From a virus (lineage: Duplodnaviria; Caudoviricetes), in IMG/VR virus record IMGVR_UViG_3300021255_004427, positions 64,001-128,000 of that record: a stretch of 64,000 nt of DNA. The stretch is one strand, 5' to 3'. Below are positions 14,457 through 36,978 of this stretch, piece by piece (positions within the stretch are counted from its first letter, which is position 1; every line of letters starts with the position of its first letter). A model generated the notes under the pieces. The model did no database searches. It saw nothing but the letters and a program-made list of their open reading frames with translations, and was not told the DNA's origin. Made by a program: the position numbers and the translations under genes.

Positions 14457-14465
14457 ACTTTACAA

Positions 14466-14499
14466 AAGACCAGGGCAATAGTTTCTGGTCTTCTTTTTT
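14466..14499 (+). terminator. Intrinsic terminator-like hairpin
   Basis: AAGACCAG-GGCAATAGTTT-CTGGTCTT followed by CTTTTTT, after the RNAP-like gene. Confidence 0.65.
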
Positions 14500-14522
14500 A
14501 TAGAAAACTCGGAGGAAATAAA

Positions 14523-17500: not shown

Positions 17501-20500
17501 GGAGTTTACTAAGCTGTTTGGCATCACCGATGTAATGGTGGAAGCTTGTGAAGTGGATACGGTTCCGAATTATCCTGGGCTTTATCATATTACAATGAGC
17601 CTGGTATCCGTAGACAGGTCCCTGCGTAATAGAGAATCTCTACAACAGAAAGATATGAAAAACTTCCACAACCTGTCTGTGCAGGGTGTCGCTCGTGAAC
17701 GCAGATGGTCCTACGCGCAGATGACAGAATATCTTTCTGAGGCAGAATTGTATCCGGATCTTGAATTACCAACTCTTAAGGAGCTGGCAGAGAATGGTTT
17801 TAATTTTATCCGCTACTCAAATACAAAGCGTGTTTATCCTGATCCGGATTTCTACTTCACGTACAGCTATGTCTTGATGAGCCAGCTTATTCGAGAAGCT
17901 GTGCTTAATTCGCTTAACTCCGATGCGTGCCAGACGGTAATTAAAGATACGACGGGCAAGGAAATCAGCGGCAGTCTTGCAAACCGCATGGGCTCCTGGA
18001 ATCGAAATTATGAATTATCCAGAGGGTGGGATAAGGACCTTAGTTCCGTATTCCAGAATGACGACCTTATTACCGCCCGCATTATTTCTGATTACGAGAA
18101 TGTTGCTGATGACGAACGCGATGAAACATGGACAATAGCACCAAATGTGAAGGTGGCCATGATGGAAAAGCGTATGCTTAACCGTATTAACGATTCTTCC
18201 AAGCAAAGCTATCAGGAAAAGAACGGAGCAAATATTCATTCGTCTACGACATATGATAATGCGGATGGAATAAAGAAACCAGTGACTGGTCAAACAACCG
18301 AAACCGATAAAGACGGCAATGTGACCGAGTTAAAGGATGCGCCGGACAATACCGGTAATACTGGATTGTCAAATGAAGACAATAAGGGAAATCTCGAAAG
18401 GTTAAAGCAGCAGCAACAGGATATCAAAGATGAAAAAGCTACAGGTAAATATTCCTCTGCCATGTATAAAAAGAACGAGGAAATTTCCAATCGTATAAAC
18501 GGTGTTATTAAACATTATCAAAACACGTCGATTGACGAAATGGGCGGCAGTATTGGAGATGCCGTACAGCAACTGGTTGCTGCGTTCAATACTTGCCCCA
18601 AATACAATAACTCGCACATAGAAGGCGTTCCAGGACAAGGCAGGAGCGAAATACCAAACGGGTTGTTTGGTAAAATCCCCGCATTCTTGGATGCGGCTGC
18701 TGATGCCATTTGCAGCAATAACGGTGTTGACTACAGTGAAGAGACGGCAGACCATTTAAACGCCGCCGCTACGGCATTTGGAGGTACAGTTGCAACATCA
18801 ATGGGTGTCGGTGCAGCGATAGGTTCGGTTGCAACACCAGTGGGAACAGTAGCAGGTGTAGCAGCTGGTGCTGCAGTGGGAACAGTAGCTGGTACAGTAG
18901 CAGCTGTCGCATCAGTAGCGACAGGAGCGCACTCTAAAAATGAAAAAGCTCCGTGGAGACACAGCACTAAGTATCGCGGGCGGCTTAAAATCGATGGCGT
19001 AGAACAAGTGTGGGCTTTCGATGACAAGGATCCGAAAAAGGATTACAAAATCGAAATGATTGCAAAGAACGCTACCGAGTTTGGGTATTTTAACTTCAAG
19101 TTCTATACACCGGAAGAATTAGAAGATCGGTTTGGTTACTATGGCCATATCGAACGGGACAACACGGTAGAAAATAGCGAAACTGTTGTAGAGGCTCATC
19201 CTCGTGTTGGAAAGTACTTGGCTGACCCGTATTATCGGTATGCAAACGCAGAAGTGCAAGAAGCGTATGTTAAGAAGTGCCTAACTGATTATGATTTTGC
19301 CAAAAAAGCATTCCTTAGAATCTGTATGCTGTATATGCAGGTGTTGGTAAGCTACAGCATTTTCCCGTCGTTCTCTTATGACGTAATGCGGGATGCTTTT
19401 ACCAATGAAGAAAATATGCGAAAAGTTTTGGCTGGCGTTGAAGAACTGCGAGCAAAGAAAGCTGCAGAGGAAAGAACTAAATCCGAAACGCAAAAACAGT
19501 ACGGCACGTCCAAGAAGTATTCTCAGAAAAAACAGCCAGGAGAAGTGAAAAAGGATGCTGCCAGCGTAGTATCATATGTTGGTGATGCCATCCCTGAGGG
19601 AGAAAAAGGCAAAGAAGCAGAAGGTAAGGATACAGAAGCCAAAGAAGGGAACGCACAAGAGAATAACGGCGATAAAAAATCGAGTACAGACAAGGCTGCT
19701 ACCGAGCAAGCCACGACAGATTCTGCCAATGCTAAAAAGACGGCAGCGCTTAATAAGTCGTTATCGGATTATGCCAAGAAGATTAACGAGAACAAAGAAG
19801 CTATGGACAATGGCAAACTGTTCCTCATGTGCGCCATGGGTGTTGTCGATGGAGATAAGAATTTCCTCAAACTTCTTCTTAACAGAGAATACGATTCCTT
19901 GAATGCAATCGCAATGGCAGCATGTAGCGGAAAAACGTCTCCAAATAAGAAGGATGCTACGTACGAAACGCGCCTTCGGAGCTTTATTCGGGCATTGGCC
20001 GGTGAAAATGTTATTGACAACTCGTTGATTGGTTCTGGTGAAACTGAGGCACCGGCAGCCGTTTTAGGGGAGAATAACTCCCGTTATAACTGCTCGGCTG
20101 CTGCTGAAGACCCGACCATGTATATGGTGCACAGCTTCTATGATATGGTCGTCCATGATTGCCGTGGGAGAATGCTTCGAGCCTTCCCAACATTCTATAT
20201 GTTTTTCATTGATGAAGGACGCAAGATTGGTAAGTTCAGGCTTCATGACAACTTCTACAACATAAATGCAATCTCCAGTATAACGATTTCAAAGTCACGC
20301 AAAAACCCTACTGACGTAGCGGAAGTCGTAATGACCAACTTCTTTAATACATTTACAACAGAAGATGAAGATTTGAATATGAACTATTCGACGAATTTTA
20401 CGGATGTATTTAAATCTTTGTGGCTGCCTACCTTGCAGTCCTATGCTGTAGATGAAGAAGAGCGCCGCACAAACGCCCCTAAGGCTGAACGATTCAGGTT

Positions 20501-23291
20501 ACGACCGGGCGCAAGGGTTCATATCCGTATTGGCTATGGCGCCGATGCTTCTCATCTGCCGATTAGTTTTAATGGGATGATTGCGGAAGTAGATAACGGC
20601 GATGTAGTAAAACTCATTTGTCAAAGCGATGGCGGAGAAATCTGTAAGCCCATTCTTCTAGAAAAGAAAGCGTCAGAACTTCAGGGGATTGATGGCGTTG
20701 GTTGGTCATCCGTTGCTGAAAACGGCGATACCCCGAAGAGTATTATGCGTAGCCTGATGTGCTTAAAAGGCGGGCTTATCAATTCCTATATGCATGATAA
20801 GGGCTGGGATGACGCAGCAAATCTTATTGGTACGCCAATAAACCCGCTAGGGATTTATCACTTCGGTAATCCCGACATGGCATATGCCGGAGACCCCGAA
20901 CCAGTACAAAACATCTTCGAGATTGGTCTTAAGGCAGGTTCGGACCGATACCTAAACGTCTCGGGGGATGACCATAAAGAAGGCGTGCTTGAGGGAATGG
21001 CAAATACCTTTAAAGGCAAGGACGAGGATATTGCAACGCACCTGCAGTTCGAAGTGTTCGGTAAAACTGTCTGGGATGTAGCAAATATCTGCCGGAGTAC
21101 CGATCCGGAATACTACGCGGCTGTTCGGCCATTCCATATGCGTTCTACATTATTTATCGGGCGCGCGCATGACTACTATGCTTATGATTATGAGCAAAAA
21201 GGCGGCACATGGATTGAAAAGCGCAAGCCATTCCAGCAGGCGCATATCTATACGTCACTCTCTGATATTATTGACAATCGGCTGGCGGTTTCTCCAAAAG
21301 ACATCAAGACGTGCGCCATTGGCATGTATGAAGTAGAAGGTTTTATGAATGCCAAGGTACAGAAGAAAACCGACCCGCAGTGGGTGGATGCGGCAATATA
21401 TCCGGAGTACCAGAAAACAATGTATGTAGATACAAAACTCTTCGGTGAAGCATCTAGAAAGCTTGGCATCATAAGTGATGTTACTGGGTGGTTTACCAAT
21501 GGTGTATTCAATAGCTGGCTGGATCGTGGTTTTGACAAGGAGGGCGATGCGCAAAATCATCATGCTCTCGCAGTAAAGATGACCATTAGTGCCCTTAAGG
21601 ACGCGATGAAAGAAATGTATCAAGGGAATATTGTTGTTATTGGCGACCCAACAGTACAGCCTAACGATCGCATAATCCTAAACGATACATACAATTACAT
21701 CAACGGGCAGTGCCTTGTCCGCGATGTAGTTCAAGTATTCTCCAGTGAAAATGGTTTTAGAACAGTGCTTACACCGGATCTCATCACCACACAGGTGGGG
21801 GATGCGTCTGCTGGGGAATCTAAAAATCAGTCCTTTGGCTGTCTTGGTGTAAATACTGTAGTTGGCACACTGGGCGCGATTTGCGGAGCGAAGCTTATGC
21901 AGGGGGCAGCATCAGGATTGTTTAAAAGCCTGCAGAGCATAAAAAACAGCGAGAATGCTGTAAAAGTTGGTAACTTAATCAAAAGCACAGGCTCTGCTAT
22001 AAATGAAAGCAAGGTTGTGCAGGTCGGTAAAAATGTTCTTGGTGGGTTTTCGAAATTTGGCAATGCTTTAAGTAAGATTGGAAGTGTTGCTCGTGCAGTT
22101 TCAACTGTAGCCAGTGGAGCTGAAGCAGTAGCTGGCGCAGTGGCCGGCGGCGCAGAGGCTGTAGCCGCTGCGGTCACGGCTGGAGGCGCGGCAACGGCGG
22201 CGGCAATTGCTGCTCCACTTGTTCCGGTATTTATATTGGGGCTTGGTGCCATAGAAGATATTGTGGCAAGTAAATTCAATAGCAGGAAGACGCTGGTAAT
22301 ATTCCCGTTAATGAAATACAACAAGCCATATGTTGGCGGAATTGATGGCCACGTTGGTTCTGTGTACGGAGCACCAAACTTTGGATCTGAAGATGCAATA
22401 CAGTCTATATTTACGACGCTGTCGAATGCAAGCAACTACCCCTATTTTTCGAAAGTGGTAAACGCCCTGTTCGGAAAAGACGGTATTATGGATATTCATC
22501 AGAGCTTTGGTTTGGATGAGTGCCAGAAGATTGCTAACGATGAAGGTCTTGCGCAAACTGCATATCGCCAAATAAACAATAGCCAAATAAACAACTTCTC
22601 GAAAGCATCTTTTAACCCGCTTAAGCCGCGCATGTCTGTACGGAGTAACAATGCCATTCAAAAAGCAAAAGCCCTTTATGGCGTAACCGGAAAAACTCCT
22701 GACGATATAAATGCGGATACAAAGATGAAGGAAATGAAGAGCGTTATTCATGACGAGACATTGAAACAATACTTCACTAATGGGTTCTTCCGTGTAGCAG
22801 CACACGAGAAAGGTTTTACAGCAGATATCAGTGACAAGATTGAATGTATCTGTATTAAAAATCCAGACAGTGAAGAATACTACTACATTAATGCTATCCT
22901 GGACAGTAATGGGTGCTATGACATACCATTTGTACACAAAGAAGCGGCGGGAGTCCTGCATGATATCATTGTGAGGTCGTTTGTTTTTATGGCTGGTACA
23001 GAACAAGAACGCGATGCATATAAATGGTATGAAGACAATAAAGGGTCATTCATAACACTGACTTCGGCCTTAAAGTGTGGCTCGTCCAAGAATTATGAAT
23101 CCACAGGCTTCTCGTTTGTATTAACCGCCTCGGACGATAAATCTCAAAAGGCGCTTTCTAGTGCTATTGATTTTATCAATCGCCAAATGGCGGAAACGCA
23201 TAATAAGATGGAGGCTGTACCAGAGGCAGTAATGACTAAGAAGGAAAGTGGCCGAGATGTATTTATTGTAGTGCATCCGCCACAGAGGTAA
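14523..23291 (+). CDS. Giant baseplate hub-like virion protein with an N-terminal thermonuclease (SNase-like) domain
   Basis: SNase motifs VDDGDTL, VRFAGLDTKE, DAYGRCISAVY, INLNKLVI. Hub (gp27/gpD-like) signatures LRPGARVHIRIGYG...FNGMIAEV and YQGNIVVIGDPTVQPNDRIILND...VRDVVQVFSSENGFRTVLTP. GTG start with GGAGG RBS. Confidence 0.65.
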   Translation: MVTDFINPAIGLPDMGDFYYDAPDQESYFGEMDKNLNSVRRDRANSAEAYRFYQEDPPQPGADEQGKVYVFDVELGAKGIGDDSEEVAGIKVDDGDTLAIPVGSIHPADEKSEKYLSYIKGYTSTHNSSGEATAVNVRFAGLDTKELPHYRKIGMDELNQKELSQVDLGTALGNKNYMVSKYKSWMQTRKTLDKAYDGYKTKGTFFDYAQPSDSVVNVVKLDDDKYHQYFSDGTNGYVLVANATNDYSPETIADAGIGRDVVVNALNDAEAMRIVVDGTQITRDGGNIKTMFNTELYGSGFENEARRQLDMLFDSYTKHQRPGFNTWGQDAYGRCISAVYVKIKGQWINLNKLVIADTNMTEINKYNDGDQASTAINLDSYEYDKKAYADSLYADTSKFDDREQVQKQIFGQTWKALKDWTVTIGDVTLFVPPTSIRTLTQTKAERMPLIRAKGSMAKSSTKNQRIIEMDLYFNEDRGINGYEYKTNTRPDNKGKNVTYWMNGLRALYAQFRVAPFLPIESYYINTVLGVDAVSLVSFSCETVPNFPKLIKATIQLSEFEYRIYMPEIPFDDGSDDDTEVRNYFSKQINYPLFRYYYQRLLRNGEELRGVKFLDKKYITSTFGNKTCLVPANFVDPYIRFYVPNKNQLERLKKAKLERMARPNTVRDITKTELNFADEMAKVKNEIDYINTSQSPLDKVNDYLKAPELDGYVLAGVNNRMVIGKAGAAGTFVPDEEKTRELESLLSEATTYYEVGLTSLKREDGQPLCQKQGATTFGPSNSDGSIYGAYFSINVEYPDISEDSLNNLRTLSSISGVASADETFVNRNLRLRMSVDFGESNLTYASNLLKGAALGKGESLFYFDVNADSSFLNFLAEVNNKQGVGGNEDANGAKALVDFVSSATLEFEPYNDDEDFLVEAIHINTSNTFAQVTLQETSGYAPQYMGGTDVSLQISMYTQSKKAASAINALPHVSAEFARNYRLVLAAWPLKIETEFTKLFGITDVMVEACEVDTVPNYPGLYHITMSLVSVDRSLRNRESLQQKDMKNFHNLSVQGVARERRWSYAQMTEYLSEAELYPDLELPTLKELAENGFNFIRYSNTKRVYPDPDFYFTYSYVLMSQLIREAVLNSLNSDACQTVIKDTTGKEISGSLANRMGSWNRNYELSRGWDKDLSSVFQNDDLITARIISDYENVADDERDETWTIAPNVKVAMMEKRMLNRINDSSKQSYQEKNGANIHSSTTYDNADGIKKPVTGQTTETDKDGNVTELKDAPDNTGNTGLSNEDNKGNLERLKQQQQDIKDEKATGKYSSAMYKKNEEISNRINGVIKHYQNTSIDEMGGSIGDAVQQLVAAFNTCPKYNNSHIEGVPGQGRSEIPNGLFGKIPAFLDAAADAICSNNGVDYSEETADHLNAAATAFGGTVATSMGVGAAIGSVATPVGTVAGVAAGAAVGTVAGTVAAVASVATGAHSKNEKAPWRHSTKYRGRLKIDGVEQVWAFDDKDPKKDYKIEMIAKNATEFGYFNFKFYTPEELEDRFGYYGHIERDNTVENSETVVEAHPRVGKYLADPYYRYANAEVQEAYVKKCLTDYDFAKKAFLRICMLYMQVLVSYSIFPSFSYDVMRDAFTNEENMRKVLAGVEELRAKKAAEERTKSETQKQYGTSKKYSQKKQPGEVKKDAASVVSYVGDAIPEGEKGKEAEGKDTEAKEGNAQENNGDKKSSTDKAATEQATTDSANAKKTAALNKSLSDYAKKINENKEAMDNGKLFLMCAMGVVDGDKNFLKLLLNREYDSLNAIAMAACSGKTSPNKKDATYETRLRSFIRALAGENVIDNSLIGSGETEAPAAVLGENNSRYNCSAAAEDPTMYMVHSFYDMVVHDCRGRMLRAFPTFYMFFIDEGRKIGKFRLHDNFYNINAISSITISKSRKNPTDVAEVVMTNFFNTFTTEDEDLNMNYSTNFTDVFKSLWLPTLQSYAVDEEERRTNAPKAERFRLRPGARVHIRIGYGADASHLPISFNGMIAEVDNGDVVKLICQSDGGEICKPILLEKKASELQGIDGVGWSSVAENGDTPKSIMRSLMCLKGGLINSYMHDKGWDDAANLIGTPINPLGIYHFGNPDMAYAGDPEPVQNIFEIGLKAGSDRYLNVSGDDHKEGVLEGMANTFKGKDEDIATHLQFEVFGKTVWDVANICRSTDPEYYAAVRPFHMRSTLFIGRAHDYYAYDYEQKGGTWIEKRKPFQQAHIYTSLSDIIDNRLAVSPKDIKTCAIGMYEVEGFMNAKVQKKTDPQWVDAAIYPEYQKTMYVDTKLFGEASRKLGIISDVTGWFTNGVFNSWLDRGFDKEGDAQNHHALAVKMTISALKDAMKEMYQGNIVVIGDPTVQPNDRIILNDTYNYINGQCLVRDVVQVFSSENGFRTVLTPDLITTQVGDASAGESKNQSFGCLGVNTVVGTLGAICGAKLMQGAASGLFKSLQSIKNSENAVKVGNLIKSTGSAINESKVVQVGKNVLGGFSKFGNALSKIGSVARAVSTVASGAEAVAGAVAGGAEAVAAAVTAGGAATAAAIAAPLVPVFILGLGAIEDIVASKFNSRKTLVIFPLMKYNKPYVGGIDGHVGSVYGAPNFGSEDAIQSIFTTLSNASNYPYFSKVVNALFGKDGIMDIHQSFGLDECQKIANDEGLAQTAYRQINNSQINNFSKASFNPLKPRMSVRSNNAIQKAKALYGVTGKTPDDINADTKMKEMKSVIHDETLKQYFTNGFFRVAAHEKGFTADISDKIECICIKNPDSEEYYYINAILDSNGCYDIPFVHKEAAGVLHDIIVRSFVFMAGTEQERDAYKWYEDNKGSFITLTSALKCGSSKNYESTGFSFVLTASDDKSQKALSSAIDFINRQMAETHNKMEAVPEAVMTKKESGRDVFIVVHPPQR

Positions 23292-26521: not shown

Positions 26522-27046
26522 ATGCTAGATTTAGAAATGACGGACAATGGAGATCTTGCATGGTCTTCGGTGTCGAGCTCGGGCGCTTTTCATTTAAGGT
26601 TTGCGCTGGCAGATTACAAAACGCAGCATATACATTTTCTTTGTAGGCCGACAAGCCGTTTGCAAAACAAACATCGCAAGGGGCAGCGCATTCGCTTCTG
26701 TTTTGCGGAACCAGGAGAAGAGTTTAAGGTACAAACCGGCTTGGTTCAGAATGAAGATGAACGACTACAAGCACTCTACATTGCACTTCGCACAGAGCTT
26801 GGCGATGTAAATGACGATACGGTGGGTTCTGATTTCTATAAAGAGGCTCACCATATCATAGCAGATGCTAATGATTTATCGACTATCCGTGATAAAGCTG
26901 CGGAAGTAGTTGAACGCTTCTTTCCGGGCTCAGTCCTCGAAGCTGAATACTCAATATGTCCAGAGGCAAAAAACTTTAAGTATCAGTCAGTGAAGTTTAC
27001 AATAAAAGATAAAGACAACGAGGTTGTAGCTTCGTTTGTATTCTGA
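26522..27046 (+). CDS. Putative baseplate wedge protein (gp25/GPW-like)
   Basis: N-terminal MLDLEMTDNGDL and LQALYIALRTELGD...VGSDF resemble gp25/W-like proteins; position between lysin and baseplate J. Confidence 0.5.
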   Translation: MLDLEMTDNGDLAWSSVSSSGAFHLRFALADYKTQHIHFLCRPTSRLQNKHRKGQRIRFCFAEPGEEFKVQTGLVQNEDERLQALYIALRTELGDVNDDTVGSDFYKEAHHIIADANDLSTIRDKAAEVVERFFPGSVLEAEYSICPEAKNFKYQSVKFTIKDKDNEVVASFVF

Positions 27047-27072
27047 GAGAGCGAAAGCTCTCTATTTTTTTT
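27046..27072 (+). terminator. Intrinsic terminator upstream of the NAD cassette
   Basis: AGAGAGC-GAAA-GCTCTCT followed by ATTTTTTTT. Confidence 0.85.
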
Positions 27073-27102
27073 GAAAAAATTTGCTTTGCTGTAAAAATAG
27101 TC

Positions 27103-27131
27103 TTGACAAATGTGGTAATGTGTACTACGAT
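27103..27131 (+). promoter_or_regulatory. sigmaA/sigma70-type promoter of the NAD operon
   Basis: TTGACA (27103-27108), 17-nt spacer, TACGAT (27126-27131); AT-rich upstream; RBS AGAGG at ~27158. Confidence 0.8.
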
Positions 27132-27154
27132 TAATGTAGTACAAGATACCACAA
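27110..27154. promoter_or_regulatory. Two NrtR-type operator sites
   Basis: ATGTG-GT-AATGTGT-AC-TACGA (27110-27130) and ATGTA-GT-ACAAGAT-AC-CACAA (27134-27154). Both are 21-bp imperfect palindromes with the GT-N7-AC core known for NrtR. Confidence 0.75.
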
Positions 27155-27170
27155 AAAAGAGGTTGATTAT

Positions 27171-27956
27171 ATGTCAGATACACAAGAAGAGAAGGAATTT
27201 CTCAAGAACTACGATGCGGCACAGTATGAAAGACCATCCGTAACAGCAGATGTTGTTATTTTTACTGTAGACAGAGATAACGAATTAAGTATCCTGTTGA
27301 TAAAGCGCGGAGGGCATCCTTTTAAGGACCATTGGGCTATCCCAGGTGGATTTCTTGAGGCTGGAAAAGAATCCATTGATGAGGCAGCCGCCCGCGAGCT
27401 GTACGAGGAAACGGGAATAAAGGTTTCTAATGGTATTGAACTTAGGCAGCTTATCACAGTTGGTGAACCGGATCGCGACCCGAGAACACATGTCGTAAGC
27501 GTAGTTTATACGGCATTGGTTCCCAAAGGGCTTCTGCATATAAAAGCAGGGGATGATGCAAAAGAAGCACAGCTTTTTAAAATCCGCAGTTGGTTCGACG
27601 AAGAAGGAAACCGCAGGCTGCGTCTTGTTGGTGATAAGATTTCACTTACCACGGATAACCTTGCATTCGATCATGCCCGCATTATAAAAATTGCATTGGA
27701 AAGGCTTAGGGGGCGGTTAGAATATACGGACGACGCCTTCGCAATGCTCAAGAATAAAAAATGTTTTAAGATTTACGAGCTCAAGAAAATTCACGAAACC
27801 ATTTTACAAAAAGTAATCGACAGAGCGAACTTCCGTAAAATGTTTATTCGAAACTTTGTCGATACCGGTAAAGTTAGAGAATTAAAAAAAGATGAAGTTG
27901 AAGGTGCTGTAAAAACAGCAATGTATATGTATGTTGGAGGAAATGAGCATGAGTAA
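27171..27956 (+). CDS. nrtR: NrtR-family regulator (Nudix domain plus winged HTH)
   Basis: YERPSVTADVVIF, LLIKRGGHPFKDHWAIPGGF, RELYEETG, RDPRTHVVSVVY, LAFDHARII; C-terminal FKIYELKKIHETIL...DRANFRK wHTH. Confidence 0.9.
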   Translation: MSDTQEEKEFLKNYDAAQYERPSVTADVVIFTVDRDNELSILLIKRGGHPFKDHWAIPGGFLEAGKESIDEAAARELYEETGIKVSNGIELRQLITVGEPDRDPRTHVVSVVYTALVPKGLLHIKAGDDAKEAQLFKIRSWFDEEGNRRLRLVGDKISLTTDNLAFDHARIIKIALERLRGRLEYTDDAFAMLKNKKCFKIYELKKIHETILQKVIDRANFRKMFIRNFVDTGKVRELKKDEVEGAVKTAMYMYVGGNEHE

Positions 27957-28500
27957 AAAAGTATTGATTGTTGTTGACATGCAGAACGATTTTATCGATG
28001 GTGCGCTGGGCACTAAAGAAGCCGAGGCCATTGTCGATAACGTAGCCAAGAAGGTTGCGGAGGCAAAAAAGAACGGCGATATCATTATCTTCACGCAGGA
28101 TACACATACGGAAGATTACCTCAACACGCAGGAAGGTAAGAATCTGCCGGTGCCTCACTGTATTAAAGGAACAGATGGCTGGAAGATAACCAACAAGATT
28201 GACATTCCTGAAGAACACCTGATATACGAAAAAGGCTCCTTCGGCTCTGGTGAACTTGGCAAAGACCTCTCCAATAGCGAGAAGGAAATCAGTGCGATTG
28301 AATTTGTCGGGCTTTGCACAGATATCTGCGTACTGTCCAACGCAGTAATTGCAAAAGCGGCACTGCCGGAAGTTCCCATCACAGTAGATGCTGCATGCTG
28401 CGCAGGCGTAACGCCGAAGAGCCATGATGAAGCTCTTGGCGCATTGCAGATGATTCAGGTAAAAGTCGTAAACCAAGGGCAGGAACCCTGGAGGGCATAA
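27949..28500 (+). CDS. pncA: Nicotinamidase (isochorismatase/cysteine hydrolase family)
   Basis: LIVVDMQNDFIDGALG, TQDTH, HCIKGTDGW, EKGSFGS, VGLCTDICVLSNA. Start moved from 27931 to the ATG at 27949, 8 nt after GGAGG. Confidence 0.88.
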   Translation: MSKKVLIVVDMQNDFIDGALGTKEAEAIVDNVAKKVAEAKKNGDIIIFTQDTHTEDYLNTQEGKNLPVPHCIKGTDGWKITNKIDIPEEHLIYEKGSFGSGELGKDLSNSEKEISAIEFVGLCTDICVLSNAVIAKAALPEVPITVDAACCAGVTPKSHDEALGALQMIQVKVVNQGQEPWRA

Positions 28501-28501
28501 A

Positions 28502-29038
28502 ATGCGCGTCGGAATTTACTTTGGTTGCTTTATCCCGCTTCATAAGGGACATGAAGCAATAATTAAAACAGCCCTAGCCGAAAATGACCATTTAATTCTG
28601 GGCGTTTGTGGGTATGATAATGACCGTGGCCATGATTATGTTCCGTTTCGGCAGCGTATCAATCTTATATCAAAGATATATGGCCGGCGCAAGAATATGA
28701 CTCTAGCGGTTGTAGATGATAAGAAAATCGGCCTTAAAGGGACATTTAGTTTAAACGCCTGGGAAATCTGGTGCAACGAACTATTCAAAAACTCTGGGTT
28801 TGACCCTAGTGACAAGGCAAATCAATACGTCTGGTATTCTGGCGAAAAGGATTATCTGGAGAAGATACAACAGCTATATCCCAGCCACGAAATGCGGCTC
28901 ATTTCCAGAGACGTAATTCCGATTTCGGGAACGGAAATCAGGGCCAATACCAGTAAATATATCACGCATATTAATCCGTTATTTGCTTTGTACTTAGCAG
29001 CACGGGAATTATTGGAGGACAATAAACATGAAGTTTAA
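28502..29038 (+). CDS. Stand-alone NadR/NadM-like nucleotidyltransferase, probable NaMN/NMN adenylyltransferase
   Basis: GIYFGCFIPLHKGH (HxGH) and ISGTEIR motifs; no kinase domain; sits between pncA and pncB. Confidence 0.75.
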   Translation: MRVGIYFGCFIPLHKGHEAIIKTALAENDHLILGVCGYDNDRGHDYVPFRQRINLISKIYGRRKNMTLAVVDDKKIGLKGTFSLNAWEIWCNELFKNSGFDPSDKANQYVWYSGEKDYLEKIQQLYPSHEMRLISRDVIPISGTEIRANTSKYITHINPLFALYLAARELLEDNKHEV

Positions 29039-30245
29039 TCAGATTATCAATTCTCTCTTGGAAACTGACCTTTACAAATTTAGCATGGGGCAGGCAATTT
29101 TCCATCAGGCCAGCGAATATGAAACCACTTGGTCTTTTAAATGCCGCAATAAAGACGTATTCTTTACGCCGGAAATGGTTGAAGAAATCCGTGAGCAGAT
29201 AAAAGCATTCTGCGGCCTGCGTTTCACGGAGGATGAGCTTCAGTATCTGGCCGGAATCAAATGGCTAAAGAAGTCTTATATCAACCATCTGCGCCTGTGG
29301 CGGCCCAACTTTGAGGATTTCGATATCAAGGCGGGCGGCGAAAAGGGCCTTATTCTTGAGGCCAAAGGCACGCTTCTGGATACATCTATGTATGAAATCC
29401 CGACTCTGGCCATTGTCAACGAGGTATATTACCGGTTCCGTGACGACTACGCATTGCTCGTTGAAGACTCCAAGGCTCGTACGCGGGCAAAAGCAGAAAA
29501 GATTCAGATGGGCAAGTATTGGCTGCCGGTATTCTCTGAATTCGGTCTGCGCCGCCGTCTTTGTGCAGAAGCGCAGGAATTTGCTGTAGAAACATTCTCC
29601 AAGCTGGATTGCCATGATGTTCTGCGCTCCTATTTTGTCGGCACCTCCAACGTTTATCTGGCCAAGAAATATGGCGTAACGCCGGTAGGCACGATGGCAC
29701 ATGAATGGATTATGTGCATGGGACAGGGCAATCACCTGTACAATCCTTCCTATTCTAACAAAGTAGCATTGGAAGCCTGGGTAAGAGAGTACGGCGTAGA
29801 TAATGGTATCGCACTTACCGATACGATTACGACGGACTGTTTCCTGCGCGATTTCAACAAGACGCTGGCTACGCTTTTCAGCGGTGTGCGCCATGACTCC
29901 GGTGACCCGTTTGTATGGGGCGACAAGATGATTGACCACTACACTCGCCTTGGCATTGACCCGATGACAAAGACGCTGTTGTTCTCTGATTCTCTGAACT
30001 TTGAGAAGGCAGATAAGATTGCTCATTATTTCGATGGCAAGGCTAAAGTAGCTTTCGGTATTGGTACATTTATTGCCAACGACACCTATGCTGAGCCCTT
30101 GAACATTGTCATGAAAGTGACGGAATGCAATGGCAGCCCGGTTGCAAAAATCTCCGATACCGTCGGCAAAGGGATGTGCAAGAGTCAGGAATATGTGGAC
30201 TACCTGCAGAGAGCTATTGACTGGCGCCTGAAGAATAAAGACTAA
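29028..30245 (+). CDS. pncB: Nicotinate phosphoribosyltransferase
   Basis: SLLETDLYKFSM, YEIPTLAIVNE, FSEFGLRRR, GTSNVYLAK, GTMAHEW, GVRHDSGDP, FSDSL, FGIGT, LNIVMK, AKISD..GK. Confidence 0.93.
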   Translation: MKFNQIINSLLETDLYKFSMGQAIFHQASEYETTWSFKCRNKDVFFTPEMVEEIREQIKAFCGLRFTEDELQYLAGIKWLKKSYINHLRLWRPNFEDFDIKAGGEKGLILEAKGTLLDTSMYEIPTLAIVNEVYYRFRDDYALLVEDSKARTRAKAEKIQMGKYWLPVFSEFGLRRRLCAEAQEFAVETFSKLDCHDVLRSYFVGTSNVYLAKKYGVTPVGTMAHEWIMCMGQGNHLYNPSYSNKVALEAWVREYGVDNGIALTDTITTDCFLRDFNKTLATLFSGVRHDSGDPFVWGDKMIDHYTRLGIDPMTKTLLFSDSLNFEKADKIAHYFDGKAKVAFGIGTFIANDTYAEPLNIVMKVTECNGSPVAKISDTVGKGMCKSQEYVDYLQRAIDWRLKNKD

Positions 30246-30248
30246 GGG

Positions 30249-31028
30249 GTGTTTTACTTGTATCCTGAATTTGATGCGAAGAAAGATAAAGAAAAGATTA
30301 TCAGCTTTTTGAGAAATTGGTTTGCCGAAAACGGCACACCGGAAACAAAAGCTGTAATAGGTATTTCCGGAGGCAAGGATTCCTCTATTGCTGCAGCACT
30401 TTGCGTAGAAGCGCTGGGGGAAGATAATGTCATCGGAGTTCTTATGCCCAATGGCATCCAGCCAGACATTGACGATGCGCTTGAGGTGGTAAAACATCTT
30501 GGTATCAAATATCGCATTGTCAATATTGAATCGTCGTACAAAGCTATGCTTAAAGCGCTGCAGTATACCGAGGCTAAAGTTGACAACAACTTCCATTTTT
30601 CAGTTACAGACCAGCTTCTTCAGAATCTTGCGCCAAGGTTACGGATGGCAACGTTATATGCTATAGCGCAGGGAGTAGAAGGTGGTGGTCGAGTTATCAA
30701 TACCTGCAATCGTTCTGAAGATTATGTAGGTTATTCGACAAAGTTCGGTGATAGCGCCGGCGACGTTTCCCCGCTTGGCGCTTATACTGTAGATGAAGTC
30801 CTGGCCATCGGAGCACTTTTGGACATTCCGGAAAGACTGGTACACAAAGCACCGTCTGACGGGCTTTGTGGTAAAACCGATGAAGATAACCTGGGCTTTA
30901 CCTATGCTGTTTTGGACAAGTACATAAAAACCGGCGAATGTGAGGATGAGCTGGTGCAGAAGCGAATTGACGAGCTGCATTATATCAATCTTCACAAACT
31001 CAAGCCAATGCCAATGGTTAAACGGTAA
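30249..31028 (+). CDS. nadE: NH3-dependent NAD+ synthetase
   Basis: VIGISGGKDS P-loop, NLAPRLRMATLY, NTCNRSEDYVGYSTKFGD, KAPSDGL, TDEDNLGFTY, HK. No glutaminase domain. TTG at 30258 may be the true start. Confidence 0.93.
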   Translation: MFYLYPEFDAKKDKEKIISFLRNWFAENGTPETKAVIGISGGKDSSIAAALCVEALGEDNVIGVLMPNGIQPDIDDALEVVKHLGIKYRIVNIESSYKAMLKALQYTEAKVDNNFHFSVTDQLLQNLAPRLRMATLYAIAQGVEGGGRVINTCNRSEDYVGYSTKFGDSAGDVSPLGAYTVDEVLAIGALLDIPERLVHKAPSDGLCGKTDEDNLGFTYAVLDKYIKTGECEDELVQKRIDELHYINLHKLKPMPMVKR

Positions 31029-31033
31029 TCAGC

Positions 31034-31065
31034 AAAAAGCTTCTATCGAATGATAGAGGCTTTTT
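31034..31065. terminator. Likely bidirectional intrinsic terminator closing the NAD operon
   Basis: AAAAAGCTTCTATC-GAAT-GATAGAGGCTTTTT. Confidence 0.85.
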
Positions 31066-31090
31066 ATTTATCCGTGGACTAAAGCATTCC

Positions 31091-31941: not shown

Positions 31942-34900
31942 ATGAGCTTGTCTATGGAATCTGTCTTGCCGAGCATGAAGCGAAGCTTCCCCAGCTGGTC
32001 AGACATTCGTAAGCGCACAGACAAATCGATTGGCGGCGCGCTGGTAAAATCATATGCAAGAGAAGCAGACTATATTCAGGATGCGATAAATGACTATCGT
32101 AAGATATTCTTCCTGTTAAACTACAAGGGACACGAAGATGAGTTTGCGGACTATCTTTATCTCGCAACTGTGGGTAAACAGGATGCAATTAATATAGTTG
32201 GCTTCGAATGCAGAGTGACCAAAGACGACAACGAATTTTACGGCAACATGGACAAGATGGCCTTATATCGGGATGACTATCTTATGTTTCATGAAAAAGT
32301 CCTGCCAGAGGGCGCTGAACAGAAAACCATCCAATACCAGATTGAAAGTGGCAGCGTCTACGAGGTAGAACTTCATAAAGAGCATATCTGGAATGCCTTT
32401 GATGAATTTGCCTTATTTGCCGGATTAACACGGTATGGCAATGAAACAAACAAAGAGCTTGCCGAAAGAACCGTCCAGGTTTTCAAGGAGTTCCCAAATC
32501 CGACCCGAACCGGTATTGGTAACGCCATACAGGATGCAATAACTCCTCACGATACCATTCTTGACGAAGATATCGATGTTTATAAAATCAGTGATGAAAA
32601 GTTCGATCTTGGCCGTGAGGATCACAAAGCAATATACGAAGATTTGGTTCAGCTGAACAGAGATATCTTCCGAGCCAAAACATGGAATCGCGATACATGG
32701 GAACATGGCTTTCAAAAGACGGATTATATCCCTCATGTATGGGATGCTCCGATGGAAGCCATCCAAAACGGTGTAGGGTATAACGATTCGCTGCGGACGG
32801 ACTATATTAAACGATTAGGACAGAGCGAGACAACAGATATTGAAGTCAACGCCTATAAGAAAGACTTCGAAAAAATCCGCCAATATATTGGCCGCACAAA
32901 TATAGAGGCGTCTATCCAGTTAACGTTAACTAAATATACTGATGTGGTTAATCCGAAAAATGTGGAATTCTGTATCAGGGCATATGACGTTCTCAAGATA
33001 CCTAACCCGAAAGATATTCATGTGCTTGGTACGAGAAAACAGAATGGCGAAAAACGCTACTATGTGGATGACCTTGCAACGGAAACGCATGGCGTAACCC
33101 GTATCGCAAATAATAGGCTGGAGAAGAATACTTCATACAAGCTTCGTTTTACACCAAAAGATACATTCTCAGGAATGAGTGTTGAAAAATGCAGACTGGC
33201 GTATGACGGCGGCGATAAGGACTTGCGTAGGGAATATTCTTATTACAAGTTGAAAGACGGCAGTATTGTAAATCAGAATGTTGCTGCACATATCACATCT
33301 ACATCACAAGTTACAACAAACCATAATATTGAAGATTGCAGTACAGGGGTCACTGTTGGCCACAGTGATACAAAAGGGTCGTTCGGAGTAGATGTTACCG
33401 GCATGGCCAAAGAAATGATTAACTATAGTGTAAGCTGCCGGCGTATTGATATCACGTCGTCAAGCTATGTAGAAGGGCGCAACGGATTTGAGTTATCCTC
33501 AGACGGTAAGTCACTTTTTAATAATCGCCCAGATTCTTTGGGACAGATTATTATTGGAGGTCAGGGCAGGGAACTTAGCTGCAACTCATACTCTTTTACA
33601 CTGGAAGCTTCTGCAATCCCTGCGCTCCAGGGGGCAATAACGGTTACGGAAATCGTTGATGGACAGATAACACAAATGACTTATCGTCAACCACAAGAAG
33701 TGGTTCGCGAATTTAAGAAGCGCTCGGAAGTCCAGGTTATTATCCAGAAATATGGTCAGAACCCTGTGAAAATCAAGAACATCGCTATGGCAAGCTATGA
33801 TGTTCACATCGGCATGTCTGATGGCACACCTTTGGTGGTGGCCGGGAAAAATACGCGATTGCCGGAAAATGTGGATGGAAAAATACTCACGGTAGAACTT
33901 ATTCCGCACACAGCGGCGTATCCTGTACTTGAATATCTACATATTGGCGGAAGCTTAAAGGGCGCCCGTTACGAAATCGATTTTGATACCAACGGGAAGA
34001 ATAATCCGGAGCTAGATATCGACACAGATTGTAACGTCACACTGTATAAAAAAGTGGGTGGCAGTAGTGTTTTAGTTGGAAGTGAAAATAGGTATACCAC
34101 AAAGGCTGTATTCAGAAATACCTCTTCCTCCTCGTTTGGGCAAATTGTTTTAGACTTGGGAAATTTTGCTTCTATATCCAGTGCAAGCCGAAAGATTAAT
34201 GACCAGTACAGTGGTACGAATAAGAAGTATATCGAGCTGGCTCCCGGCGAAGAAATTTTTGAGATGGACATTGCCGGCGAGGTAATCCGGCAAATTACCA
34301 ATAAGCCGTTAACAGAATACCTGTTTGGTGCAAATACGCAAAATAAAGAGGTATATGCTACCCGGGGGACAAGCGGGTACATTTTAGTAAAAGACGTTGC
34401 AAGTGGCCAGATAAAAAAAGTAACAATTCCGTATGCGGATTTGGATGGCCGTGCTGACACGTATCAGTTAACAGGATTGCCAAGAGAGCTATCCGCAGAA
34501 TTTGTGACATCCAATGGCGAGATCAGGGAAGTATCCAATTCCGGTAATGGTAGCGTATTTGACCATCTTGGTATTGCTTATAAACAAGCATCAGAATATG
34601 TTGCCTATAACACGGTTTCAATGATCAAAGAAAAACAGGCCGGTGTTGAAATGGTTAATACATTTACACCGGTTATGTCTTTGACGGAACTGCGATACTA
34701 TGTTATTGCCGCCACAAAAAACATTAGTGACAACATGGTGGTATTTGGTACATCAAAAGATAATTGGAGTCTGGGTGTTGATCCTAAAGGAATAGATGTC
34801 AGCACGACGCTGGAAACAAAGAATGCGGATTCTTGGATCATTAGTATTAACAATGTCAGCAACAGATATATTCTTGCAAATGAAGTGCCATTAGAGGAAA

Positions 34901-36978
34901 GATACTTCATTGAACAGGATGGGCTATATCACGACCTTCGCGAATATATGGTTACAACAGAACCCGGCTTAAAAATTAACTACGAGATTGAGCCAGGAAT
35001 CGAAGAAAATATAACCGTAAAGAGTAAGCTGGTAAATAAGCTAAGATACTCTAATATAAACGAAATTAAAATCTACCAAGGGACAGCAATAATTAGCAGC
35101 GGTTTTGAAGTGCTAAAAGATGAAGGACTTATTGTCTGGTCGGATGGGCGGTATTTGGGTGTACCTTTGAAGGTTGTTTATTCGATAAAAAGACCGTCCA
35201 CAGTATCTTATACCAGGGAGTATGAAGACAAGCTGTACAAACTGGTTAGTTTTTCGGCTGAAGCCTACAAGCTTATCGGGACAAAAGTTTATAAAAACTG
35301 TCCAGATGGCGCACAGTATACCCTTCGCTTCGAAGAAGAGCCCGATAAGATAATCACGTCCTGCACAAACGCTTCGTTTAATACATCTGTGCTGAACGGA
35401 GTATTGACGGCGGCCCGAGTAACAGATGAGGACAAGATAGCCGTACACAATGGTTACATTTATGACCAAGGGCGGGAATACTATTTCTTTAGCGACGTAT
35501 TCAATGACCGTGTTGATGTGTTCAGTAATATCGAAATGCATGATGTTACGCGTCTTAATGGGGAACTATTATTCCACATGCGCTCTACAAACTACCTGCC
35601 CTATTCTAGTATGAAAACGTCTGTTATGGCAGACCTCTGTTCTATTGACCTAACTAAGAGGCTCCCGCCGGGGATAAGCAAGGCTAATCATTTAACTGCA
35701 TGTGAGGGGTACAACCTTTGGCACACGGTTAATATGAAAATTGCTTTGGCGGAAAATGGGCTGAACGGCTATGCCTTGGCATTAAAATCTCTCGATAAAA
35801 CTGGGGGATATGCAGCATTAGATGTCACTTCTTTTTATGTCGAAGGGAATGCTATATCTCTTCAAGTTACCGGCGATTTACAGGCGGAGATTATCAAAGA
35901 AACACAACTGGACGGCCTCACAATGACCAAGTCTGTATTCCTTGAGAGAGAAAATGGGAAAACGTTGGTTATGGATGATGATATTGCGTATACCATCTGC
36001 GGGGAGCCAGAAAAGAATTGCCGATATTTTATAGTTCTTTCTGGCACAAACGGCGTCATTGACGATCTTGTATCTTTGCCATATGTGGATTTAAGGGCCA
36101 TGAAAGCTACGCACAAAAAGAATATAAGCAAACTGAACTTTAACATAACTGAGAAAATGCCAGAGAAGTATGAATACGACCTCGAATTTGATGTCGTAGG
36201 TGCTTCGTACAAAGACCTCAATATTCACAGTCAGACAAGGGAAATTGAAACCACGGCAGATGTAGAATATGGACTCACGCTTGTGGAATCCGTAGACCTT
36301 GAAAAGTGCATGATTTCAAGAATGCAGATAACAAAAGGTACGATTGTGGCTACACTTAATGAGGGGTACGCAAAGACGCCCATATTCTTTACACATACGA
36401 AATCTTCAGTGTACGCCTTGTATGTAAAAATCAATGATATCATTGAAGGCCGCTACAAAGGGTTTACTATAAAGCTCTATGGCTCTAATACGAGAAGCGG
36501 TGGATACACCCTGCTTGCAACAGAGGAGAATACAAACATTCTTTCAATTCCCCACAATCTCGTACGAAACTACTACTATGTGGAAGTTATTGCTGATAAA
36601 AATAAAGTAATTCATAGCATAGATGTTTACGCAAGATATGCTGAAACCGAAGACGGCGGAAAGCTTGCGCCAACGAGAATTGAAAAAGGCACGTTTATTA
36701 GCAAGATATATGACGTTGGAGAAACAGCAAATTATATCCTCCAGGATATTGACTATGTGACAAACAACCATGACGACGATATTGAGTTTTATGTCCGCGG
36801 CGTGCGTGAGGGGAAGAACAGTTTAGTATTTACCCCTTGGAGAAAATACGTGGCAAACGCAGATAAGTTAAAACAGATTCGCTATGATGGTTATTCTCTG
36901 TTCCAGTTTAAGATAAATGTCAATAGCCCCGCAGCAACCCTTAAGGTGAATAAATTTAGAATGGTGGTCGCATCGTAA
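31942..36978 (+). CDS. Large virion structural protein (probable baseplate wedge)
   Basis: 1678-aa beta-rich ORF directly after baseplate J; N-terminal WNAFDEFALFAGLTRYGNETNKEL...NPTRTGIGNAI resembles wedge proteins. Confidence 0.5.
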   Translation: MSLSMESVLPSMKRSFPSWSDIRKRTDKSIGGALVKSYAREADYIQDAINDYRKIFFLLNYKGHEDEFADYLYLATVGKQDAINIVGFECRVTKDDNEFYGNMDKMALYRDDYLMFHEKVLPEGAEQKTIQYQIESGSVYEVELHKEHIWNAFDEFALFAGLTRYGNETNKELAERTVQVFKEFPNPTRTGIGNAIQDAITPHDTILDEDIDVYKISDEKFDLGREDHKAIYEDLVQLNRDIFRAKTWNRDTWEHGFQKTDYIPHVWDAPMEAIQNGVGYNDSLRTDYIKRLGQSETTDIEVNAYKKDFEKIRQYIGRTNIEASIQLTLTKYTDVVNPKNVEFCIRAYDVLKIPNPKDIHVLGTRKQNGEKRYYVDDLATETHGVTRIANNRLEKNTSYKLRFTPKDTFSGMSVEKCRLAYDGGDKDLRREYSYYKLKDGSIVNQNVAAHITSTSQVTTNHNIEDCSTGVTVGHSDTKGSFGVDVTGMAKEMINYSVSCRRIDITSSSYVEGRNGFELSSDGKSLFNNRPDSLGQIIIGGQGRELSCNSYSFTLEASAIPALQGAITVTEIVDGQITQMTYRQPQEVVREFKKRSEVQVIIQKYGQNPVKIKNIAMASYDVHIGMSDGTPLVVAGKNTRLPENVDGKILTVELIPHTAAYPVLEYLHIGGSLKGARYEIDFDTNGKNNPELDIDTDCNVTLYKKVGGSSVLVGSENRYTTKAVFRNTSSSSFGQIVLDLGNFASISSASRKINDQYSGTNKKYIELAPGEEIFEMDIAGEVIRQITNKPLTEYLFGANTQNKEVYATRGTSGYILVKDVASGQIKKVTIPYADLDGRADTYQLTGLPRELSAEFVTSNGEIREVSNSGNGSVFDHLGIAYKQASEYVAYNTVSMIKEKQAGVEMVNTFTPVMSLTELRYYVIAATKNISDNMVVFGTSKDNWSLGVDPKGIDVSTTLETKNADSWIISINNVSNRYILANEVPLEERYFIEQDGLYHDLREYMVTTEPGLKINYEIEPGIEENITVKSKLVNKLRYSNINEIKIYQGTAIISSGFEVLKDEGLIVWSDGRYLGVPLKVVYSIKRPSTVSYTREYEDKLYKLVSFSAEAYKLIGTKVYKNCPDGAQYTLRFEEEPDKIITSCTNASFNTSVLNGVLTAARVTDEDKIAVHNGYIYDQGREYYFFSDVFNDRVDVFSNIEMHDVTRLNGELLFHMRSTNYLPYSSMKTSVMADLCSIDLTKRLPPGISKANHLTACEGYNLWHTVNMKIALAENGLNGYALALKSLDKTGGYAALDVTSFYVEGNAISLQVTGDLQAEIIKETQLDGLTMTKSVFLERENGKTLVMDDDIAYTICGEPEKNCRYFIVLSGTNGVIDDLVSLPYVDLRAMKATHKKNISKLNFNITEKMPEKYEYDLEFDVVGASYKDLNIHSQTREIETTADVEYGLTLVESVDLEKCMISRMQITKGTIVATLNEGYAKTPIFFTHTKSSVYALYVKINDIIEGRYKGFTIKLYGSNTRSGGYTLLATEENTNILSIPHNLVRNYYYVEVIADKNKVIHSIDVYARYAETEDGGKLAPTRIEKGTFISKIYDVGETANYILQDIDYVTNNHDDDIEFYVRGVREGKNSLVFTPWRKYVANADKLKQIRYDGYSLFQFKINVNSPAATLKVNKFRMVVAS

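Follow-up and report, generated by a model that had tools for sequence, protein, structure and literature searches.

The locus described here raises the question of how a phage controls genes for NAD+ synthesis, and whether that control answers to attack by host immunity or to ordinary NAD+ metabolism. It lies in a 224-kb rumen phage with all long genes on the + strand, and the window that was analysed (64,000 nucleotides, bases 64001-128000 of one 224,101-bp virus record whose completeness is estimated by CheckV at 95%) includes giant ORFs that match no family, along with several tail-fibre proteins. The giant ORFs, of 3102, 2922 and 1678 aa, lie on either side of the NAD cassette (window 5148-23291 and 31942-36978), and neither the 2922-aa nor the 1678-aa product matches a Pfam family. 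A preliminary description of this DNA had proposed that two palindromes ahead of the first cassette gene are operators for the repressor NrtR, and that the resulting switch senses immune attack. The answer developed below is that a host-type sigma-70 promoter and two NrtR operators probably control a five-gene cassette that was captured, promoter included, from a Selenomonas-type chromosome.

The control region occupies a 124-bp spacer between a 174-aa ORF (orf174) and the 261-aa ORF of nrtR, and contains, in order, an intrinsic terminator, a promoter, two 21-bp boxes, and a ribosome-binding site followed by the ATG at 27171 (Table 1). The five genes nrtR, pncA, NMNAT, pncB and nadE are joined by short or overlapping junctions and bracketed by two terminators, and therefore constitute one operon. 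The left terminator is also found in the sister phage lineage L004, with compensatory changes, and the hairpin that follows nadE has a folding energy of -17.3 kcal/mol (z -4.9). With nrtR accompanied by pncA, pncB and nadE behind an NrtR site, the unit has, as far as sequence can tell, the composition of a Firmicutes-type NrtR-regulated Preiss-Handler operon.

Several details of the individual genes deserve mention. The first ATG of the pncA ORF is at 27931, but a GGAGG at 27936-27940 precedes an ATG at 27949 in a stretch that overlaps the nrtR stop codon (ATGAGTAA, window 27936-27956), and pncA therefore probably starts at 27949, an arrangement that suggests translational coupling of nrtR and pncA. 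The NMNAT gene product, which also aligns with the NadR-family NMNAT of PDB 6GYE (2.8e-21), has no kinase domain in its 178 aa. Two NadR-type NMNAT genes are present in the viral contigs L031 and L032 (L031:6290-6727 and 8609-9106). In the sister lineage L004, whose NrtR is 87% identical, a gene for a 422-aa RRXRR + HNH endonuclease (L004:7049-8317, also in L005 and L247) lies between nrtR and pncA, with a 270-bp gap after nrtR, an arrangement that resembles the insertion of a mobile endonuclease into the operon.

Table 1. Features of the NAD cassette and its control region (window positions)
Feature	Position	Strand	Remark
Intrinsic terminator of upstream structural gene orf174	27046..27073	+	Stem-loop and T-run; left cassette boundary
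-35 hexamer TTGACA	27103..27108	+	Homologous loci, Selenomonas-type and others, have the identical hexamer equally far from box 1
NrtR box 1, core GTGGTA-N5-TACTAC (27112-27128)	27110..27130	+	Over promoter spacer and most of the -10
-10 hexamer TACGAT	27126..27131	+	Overlapped by right half of box 1
NrtR box 2, core GTAGTA-N5-TACCAC (27136-27152)	27134..27154	+	Spans predicted start site and first part of leader
Ribosome-binding site AAAGAGG for nrtR	27156..27162	+	Read from sequence
nrtR, Nudix domain and NrtR winged-helix domain, 261 aa	27171..27956	+	Pfam, PDB alignments, predicted fold
pncA, nicotinamidase, isochorismatase family	27931..28500	+	Pfam PF00857, 3.4e-26
NadR-type nicotinamide/nicotinate mononucleotide adenylyltransferase (NMNAT) domain, 178 aa	28502..29038	+	TIGR01526, 1.5e-23
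pncB, nicotinate phosphoribosyltransferase	29028..30245	+	NF003704, 469 bits, above cut-off
nadE, NAD+ synthase	30249..31028	+	TIGR00552, 171 bits, above cut-off
Terminator hairpin 3' of nadE	31034..31069	+	14-bp stem, then U-rich tail; right cassette boundary

Since an operator presupposes its repressor, the identity of the first gene product matters, and Pfam, solved-structure matches and the predicted fold all make it clear that the 261-aa protein is an NrtR-family regulator, as had been claimed. The N-terminal Nudix-fold effector domain matches PF00293 (1.1e-20, 74.4 bits against a cut-off of 21.1), and the C-terminal NrtR-type winged helix-turn-helix matches PF21906 with 27.0 bits, exactly at the cut-off. 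Full-length alignments were obtained with PDB 2FML, an Enterococcus NrtR-family structure (1.7e-33), and with the Shewanella protein SoNrtR, PDB 3GZ5 (9e-25). An AF2 model built from 50 homologues (pLDDT 90.5) predicts helices at residues 201-212 and 218-230 and a hairpin wing; its fold resembles NrtR-family Nudix domains in Foldseek, where the top matches are 2FML, Bacteroides AraR (BtAraR) and the SoNrtR-DNA complex. The best-scoring NCBIfam model is NF050029, 'ADPR responsive transcriptional repressor', at 135 bits against an equivalog cut-off of 400, and function is therefore transferred at the family level only.

Published NrtR sites are palindromes of 21 bp, with GT-N7-AC at the core, found either across a promoter or directly downstream of it (PMC2330246). 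Both palindromes named in the preliminary description are present, box 1 as ATGTGGTAATGTGTACTACGA and box 2 as ATGTAGTACAAGATACCACAA; each carries GT-N7-AC, and their centres are 24 bp apart. They fit the published type, and their position and 24-bp phasing are kept in bacterial and phage homologues, so that the promoter of these NAD genes appears to hold a cognate operator. The -35 and -10 hexamers are separated by 17 nt, and box 1 covers the spacer and -10 just as had been described; the -10 reads TATGAT in L004 and TACAAT in L023. Box 2 does lie just upstream of nrtR, but it overlaps the expected start (~27138) and is not just past it. A consensus scan finds other sigma-70-like sites of equal score, and the idea that this promoter is the only such site of the phage was dropped.

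Because all four half-sites share GTRGTA, the conserved core can be written GTRGTA-N5-TACYAC. This pattern occurs twice in the whole 224-kb genome, both times at the nrtR promoter, and no third site appears genome-wide when one mismatch is allowed; window shuffles give an expectation of 0.32 matches at up to one mismatch. The 21-bp consensus of the preliminary description likewise matches only the two boxes in 224,101 bp, but its outer positions are not conserved in relatives. As the core pattern was derived from the boxes themselves, an independent weight matrix was built from bacterial homologues only (ten sites, symmetrised). Across ~224,000 genome positions this bacterial-only matrix ranks box 2 first with 21.5 bits and box 1 second with 17.2, the next best position scoring 12.2. 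Top scores of at least 17 bits also arise in about 4 of 20 shuffled genomes, and for that reason the weight of the matrix result lies in two matches, 24 bp apart, at a single predicted place. A wider regulon, which the preliminary description had raised, did not emerge: by pattern and by matrix, the whole genome has no site beyond the two boxes.

The strongest local palindrome, GTACTAC-N7-GTAGTAC at 27122-27142, is not an operator candidate in its own right, since it arises where the two boxes meet, from the right half of box 1 and the left half of box 2; its polarity is opposite to GT-N7-AC, and it would orphan the outer half-sites. A 16-mer from box 2, searched against viral and metagenome collections, gave mostly chance matches and, after filtering, only known phage relatives. 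A DNA search of the phage collection gave one weak 220-bp match, which was uninformative.

The closest named relatives of the phage NrtR belong to Selenomonas ruminantium, with 66-70% identity. The order nrtR-pncA-pncB-nadE recurs at L016-L019 (S. ruminantium protein clusters P0008 and P0021; one locus from a named assembly) and at L024, which carries a comparably close NrtR homologue, and L025 has nrtR-pncA followed by a partial nadE. Between the phage and these Selenomonas-type loci PncB is 83-85% identical, NadE 68-76% and PncA 59-64%, and the Selenomonas-type operons that were compared hold no counterpart of the NMNAT gene. The control region is shared as well. The bacterial layout consists of TTGACA, 1-3 nt, box 1 with its right half over the -10, 3 nt, box 2 and often a third box, and it precedes nrtR in L016-L019, in contigs L024 and L025, and in the Clostridia MAG L006. 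The same layout is seen in L031 (253 kb) and L032, large viral contigs that form a second group, with NrtR 57% identical. Box 1 occupies an equivalent position in L016, L024, L025, L006 and L031, and the box centres are 24 bp apart in every homologous locus compared.

The boxes themselves vary among the loci. L016 has GTGGTA-N5-TACTAT followed by ACAGTA-N5-TACCAC, and box 2 of L025 is identical to that of the phage at 20 of 20 bases. Box 1 of L025 is the exact reverse complement of its own box 2, and the two form a 45-bp hyper-palindrome over the promoter (upstream of 1419). The Selenomonas-type operons have a third, weaker box 24 bp further downstream (L016:6899-6963, L017:6890-6960, and upstream of 620 in L024) and a leader of 60-80 nt; the phage copies have two boxes only, and their leader is about 33 nt long. 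At L017-L019 (cluster P0021) and in a Lachnospiraceae MAG (L007) the boxes are TAGTC-N5-GACTA instead. The predicted recognition helix reads NFRK in all nine GTA-type loci and NFRR in both GTC-type loci, whose regulators belong to different branches; judged from these alignments, the covariation, which amounts to two switches, is of the kind expected for a true operator. In this NrtR clade, NFRK versus NFRR is a candidate determinant of specificity.

How did a chromosomal operon come to lie among phage structural genes? In a distant phage relative, L250 (orf262 52% identical), the two genes that flank the cassette are adjacent and the cassette is absent (L250:6431-7786), and this adjacency marks the insertion point of the NAD operon. 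The cassette is therefore a host operon with its own promoter and terminator that was inserted into the tail-gene region, with an adenylyltransferase gene added. Four other viral contigs from IMG/VR (L033, L034, L036 and L037, 43-165 kb) encode NrtR-like proteins of 37-43% identity beside pncB and/or nadE but lack an upstream spacer; they differ in layout and were apparently acquired independently.

A captured promoter need not remain in use, and it has to be asked whether the boxes are the decaying relic of one, or whether the palindromes serve an RNA element or a hairpin promoter for a phage polymerase. These readings are very improbable. A relic would agree with the inheritance of the architecture from bacteria rather than its evolution in the phage, with loss of the third box of the Selenomonas-type loci, and with the splitting of nrtR from pncA by the RRXRR-HNH gene in L004. 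The operator footprint, however, has been kept. It was compared among three phage lineages whose NrtR proteins are 84-97% identical, which amounts to few independent comparisons; from the -35 to the end of box 2, 46/51 to 47/50 positions are identical (90-94%), as against 61-81% in the spacer DNA beside this core, 77-79% in nrtR coding DNA and 49-63% at nrtR third codon positions. In these lineages the operator core is under stronger constraint than coding DNA, and its retention beside diverged flanks and synonymous sites argues against decay. So does the nature of the core substitutions, which mostly preserve the consensus (G/A at the R position, a better -10), and nrtR is intact in every phage copy. 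A riboswitch or other leader structure was ruled out by the absence of an Rfam match in the nrtR leader and of a stable fold (z = 0.6), and the central palindrome extends upstream of the predicted start site for half its length, which also speaks against these readings.

With functional operators the favoured reading, there is good support for occlusion of the promoter by an NrtR that regulates itself. NrtR dimers on box 1, over the spacer and -10, and on box 2, over the start site, would exclude host RNA polymerase, which is assumed to transcribe the operon, and the operon would in this way repress itself. Mycobacterial NrtR is an auto-repressor that is released by ADP-ribose (PMC6800001). 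By analogy, an NAD+ breakdown product, most likely ADP-ribose, would loosen the phage NrtR from DNA, and the nicotinamide-to-NAD+ route would then be made when NAD+ is being consumed. Because no phage NrtR is yet present when the genome enters the cell, the operon should be open at that time unless host NrtR binds. If the host has an NrtR of its own that works on near-identical boxes, this repressor could keep the operon closed on arrival, and such binding is plausible for L016- or L025-type bacteria. Encoding NrtR in cis would, in addition, keep the repressor level in step with phage genome copy number.

ADP-ribose is a reasonable choice of inducer at the level of the family, since the NrtR proteins of Shewanella, Synechocystis and Mycobacterium respond to it (PMC2330246, PMC6800001) and four of six ADP-ribose contacts of SoNrtR are kept. 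The contacts are those given in PMC4666351, mapped through the alignment of the two proteins: Tyr10 (phage Y14), Phe15 (Y19, still aromatic), Arg41 (R46) and Arg98 (R105) are kept, and Asn43 (G48) and Lys76 (E80) are lost. The change from Lys76 to Glu80 restores the canonical Nudix helix, RELYEETGI. Because the Nudix core REUxEExGU is thus intact, the phage NrtR, the product of the only Nudix gene of the genome, may also hydrolyse ADP-ribose rather than only sense it; intact signatures in family members have been linked to ADPR pyrophosphatase activity (PMC2330246).

Alternatively, NrtR may be mainly an ADPR pyrophosphatase with ligand-independent autoregulation, or the operator may answer to another ligand, such as NAD+ or NaAD, which would then govern repression in the manner of Corynebacterium NdnR. 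Both readings are unlikely. The canonical helix stands in place of the degenerate RKLAEKT of SoNrtR, and NaAD and related dinucleotides also weakened SoNrtR binding (PMC2330246); NAD for NdnR and L-arabinose for Bacteroides AraR are on record as family ligands (PMC4666351). Against these readings stand the G-to-E spacing of the Nudix box (GFLEAGKE), one residue above canonical, and the retention, alongside the four contacts, of the N-terminal NYD...Y motif, which stacks on adenine (PMC4666351). Furthermore, outside Corynebacterium a response to ADPR has been seen in every NAD-regulon NrtR studied by experiment (PMC2330246, PMC6800001).

If ADP-ribose is the inducer, the remaining question is which source of it matters to the phage. 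The preliminary description saw a phage-evolved sensor of host NADase immunity, active only under attack, and as stated this is not supported. In gene order and in the arrangement of promoter and operators, the circuit and its enzyme genes, three out of four, agree with the Selenomonas-type chromosomal housekeeping operon, with 59-85% protein identity; on this comparison the circuit is inherited and is not a phage invention, and its logic would therefore be that of ordinary NAD homeostasis, blind to the type of NAD+ consumer.

The counter-defence reading, in which the phage has kept the switch specifically to detect ADP-ribose from host NADase defences (Thoeris, SIR2, DSR, SEFIR and the like) and rebuilds NAD+ only under attack, is unlikely but has several observations in its favour. 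NADase defences yield ADPR and nicotinamide, respectively the presumed inducer and the entry substrate of the pathway (bioRxiv 10.1101/2024.02.11.579819; PMC13464706), and NAD genes linked to NrtR are found again in a number of large viral contigs that are unrelated. The constraint on the operator core among phage lineages points the same way, although gene order and operator layout follow the bacterial housekeeping operon and no phage-specific adaptation is visible. A search of the phage genome for the NAD consumers LigA (NAD-dependent ligase), Macro and SIR2 found none, so those families cannot explain a need for NAD+; yet NrtR cannot separate immune from metabolic NAD+ turnover. Nor does an operon that starts open at entry, unless host NrtR cross-binds, correspond to one expressed 'only when attacked', and the four-step route uses ATP and PRPP and is slow compared with NARP1.

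The known phage NAD+ reconstitution pathways were also looked for. For NARP1, which pairs the PRPP-synthetase-like Adps with Namat, the phage genome has no Pribosyltran_N match and PncB is its only NAPRTase-family gene. For NARP2, which pairs Nampt with a bifunctional NMNAT/Nudix protein, the single phosphoribosyltransferase is a nicotinate PRTase above cut-off, and NrtR accounts for the one Nudix gene. For NARP3, which pairs the PnuC transporter with a NadR-like NMNAT-kinase, the genome has no PnuC family match and the NMNAT is of the kinase-less form. The absence of NARP1-3 and of the NAD consumers searched for is compatible with a defence-related role, though no proof of one. It is possible, if rather doubtful, that the cassette acts as a damage sensor, in which NADase-released ADPR would lift repression, imposed at first by cross-binding host NrtR and later by phage NrtR, so that nicotinamide is recycled. 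If true, this would be a fourth, deamidating phage NAD+ reconstitution route and the first inducible, metabolite-gated phage counter-defence.

Gut jumbo phages with Preiss-Handler and salvage clusters have already been published (PMC11662467). NrtR, Nudix regulators and operators are not mentioned there; in the NARP papers, as in a survey of viral NAD/ADP-ribose systems, NrtR is either absent or named solely as a bacterial regulator, and a full-text literature search for NrtR and phage turned up no account of an NrtR switch carried by a phage. The searchable NARP papers treat phage NAD+ genes as simply expressed. In the jumbo phage described here, and in one or more other groups of large viral contigs, a repressor and operator accompany the enzymes. 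Because repressor and operator travel with the enzymes, and because the operator is more conserved than coding DNA, the data suggest metabolite control of NAD+ synthesis in at least some phages. The cassette is, moreover, a clean example of phage capture of a regulated host operon as a whole, promoter and terminator included. It provides a simple, testable promoter-repressor pair, and with boxes near-identical to those of bacterial L025 and L016, cross-talk between host and phage repressors is possible.

Among known systems, the chromosomal nrtR-pncA-pncB-nadE operon of S. ruminantium (L016-L019), together with the system described in 2008 (PMC2330246), comes closest, with nrtR as the first gene, an autoregulatory GT-N7-AC palindrome and, in the Selenomonas-type loci, the same box phasing and the protein similarity given above. 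Unlike the Selenomonas operon, the phage copy lies among tail-region genes, is bracketed by terminators, has two boxes rather than three and a shorter leader, and carries a NadR-type NMNAT gene between pncA and pncB. The Shewanella oneidensis NrtR, whose operators precede prs-nadV (PMC2330246; PDB 3GZ5, 3GZ6, 3GZ8), resembles the phage protein in its tandem sites, in the two-domain fold predicted for the phage protein (Foldseek TM 0.73-0.75 by target) and in the Tyr, Phe/Tyr and two Arg residues that meet ADPR. It differs in sequence (27-28% identity), in box sequence, in the genes regulated, and in having a degenerate Nudix helix where the phage NrtR has the canonical REUxEExGU.

The 'NAD-jumbo phages' of animal guts (Microbiome 2024, PMC11662467) are likewise ruminant-gut jumbo phages with clustered pncB, nadD and nadE, and the cluster described here differs from those, as described, in having its own repressor and operator. 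NARP1, NARP2 and NARP3 (bioRxiv 10.1101/2024.02.11.579819; PMC13464706) share with the present cassette the use of phage enzymes that remake NAD+ from breakdown products, and NARP3 a NadR-type NMNAT domain. In contrast to all three, the phage genome has no Adps/Namat, Nampt or PnuC and its route is the deamidating PncA-PncB-NadE one; it has a dedicated transcriptional switch, and any counter-defence role is putative. The phage operon is thus a phage-borne case of the well-known NrtR regulon, in which the operator reading is strongly supported by the sequence comparisons and the immune-sensor story has modest odds. The regulatory principle is textbook NrtR biology, and the advance lies in the context in which it is found, not in the mechanism.
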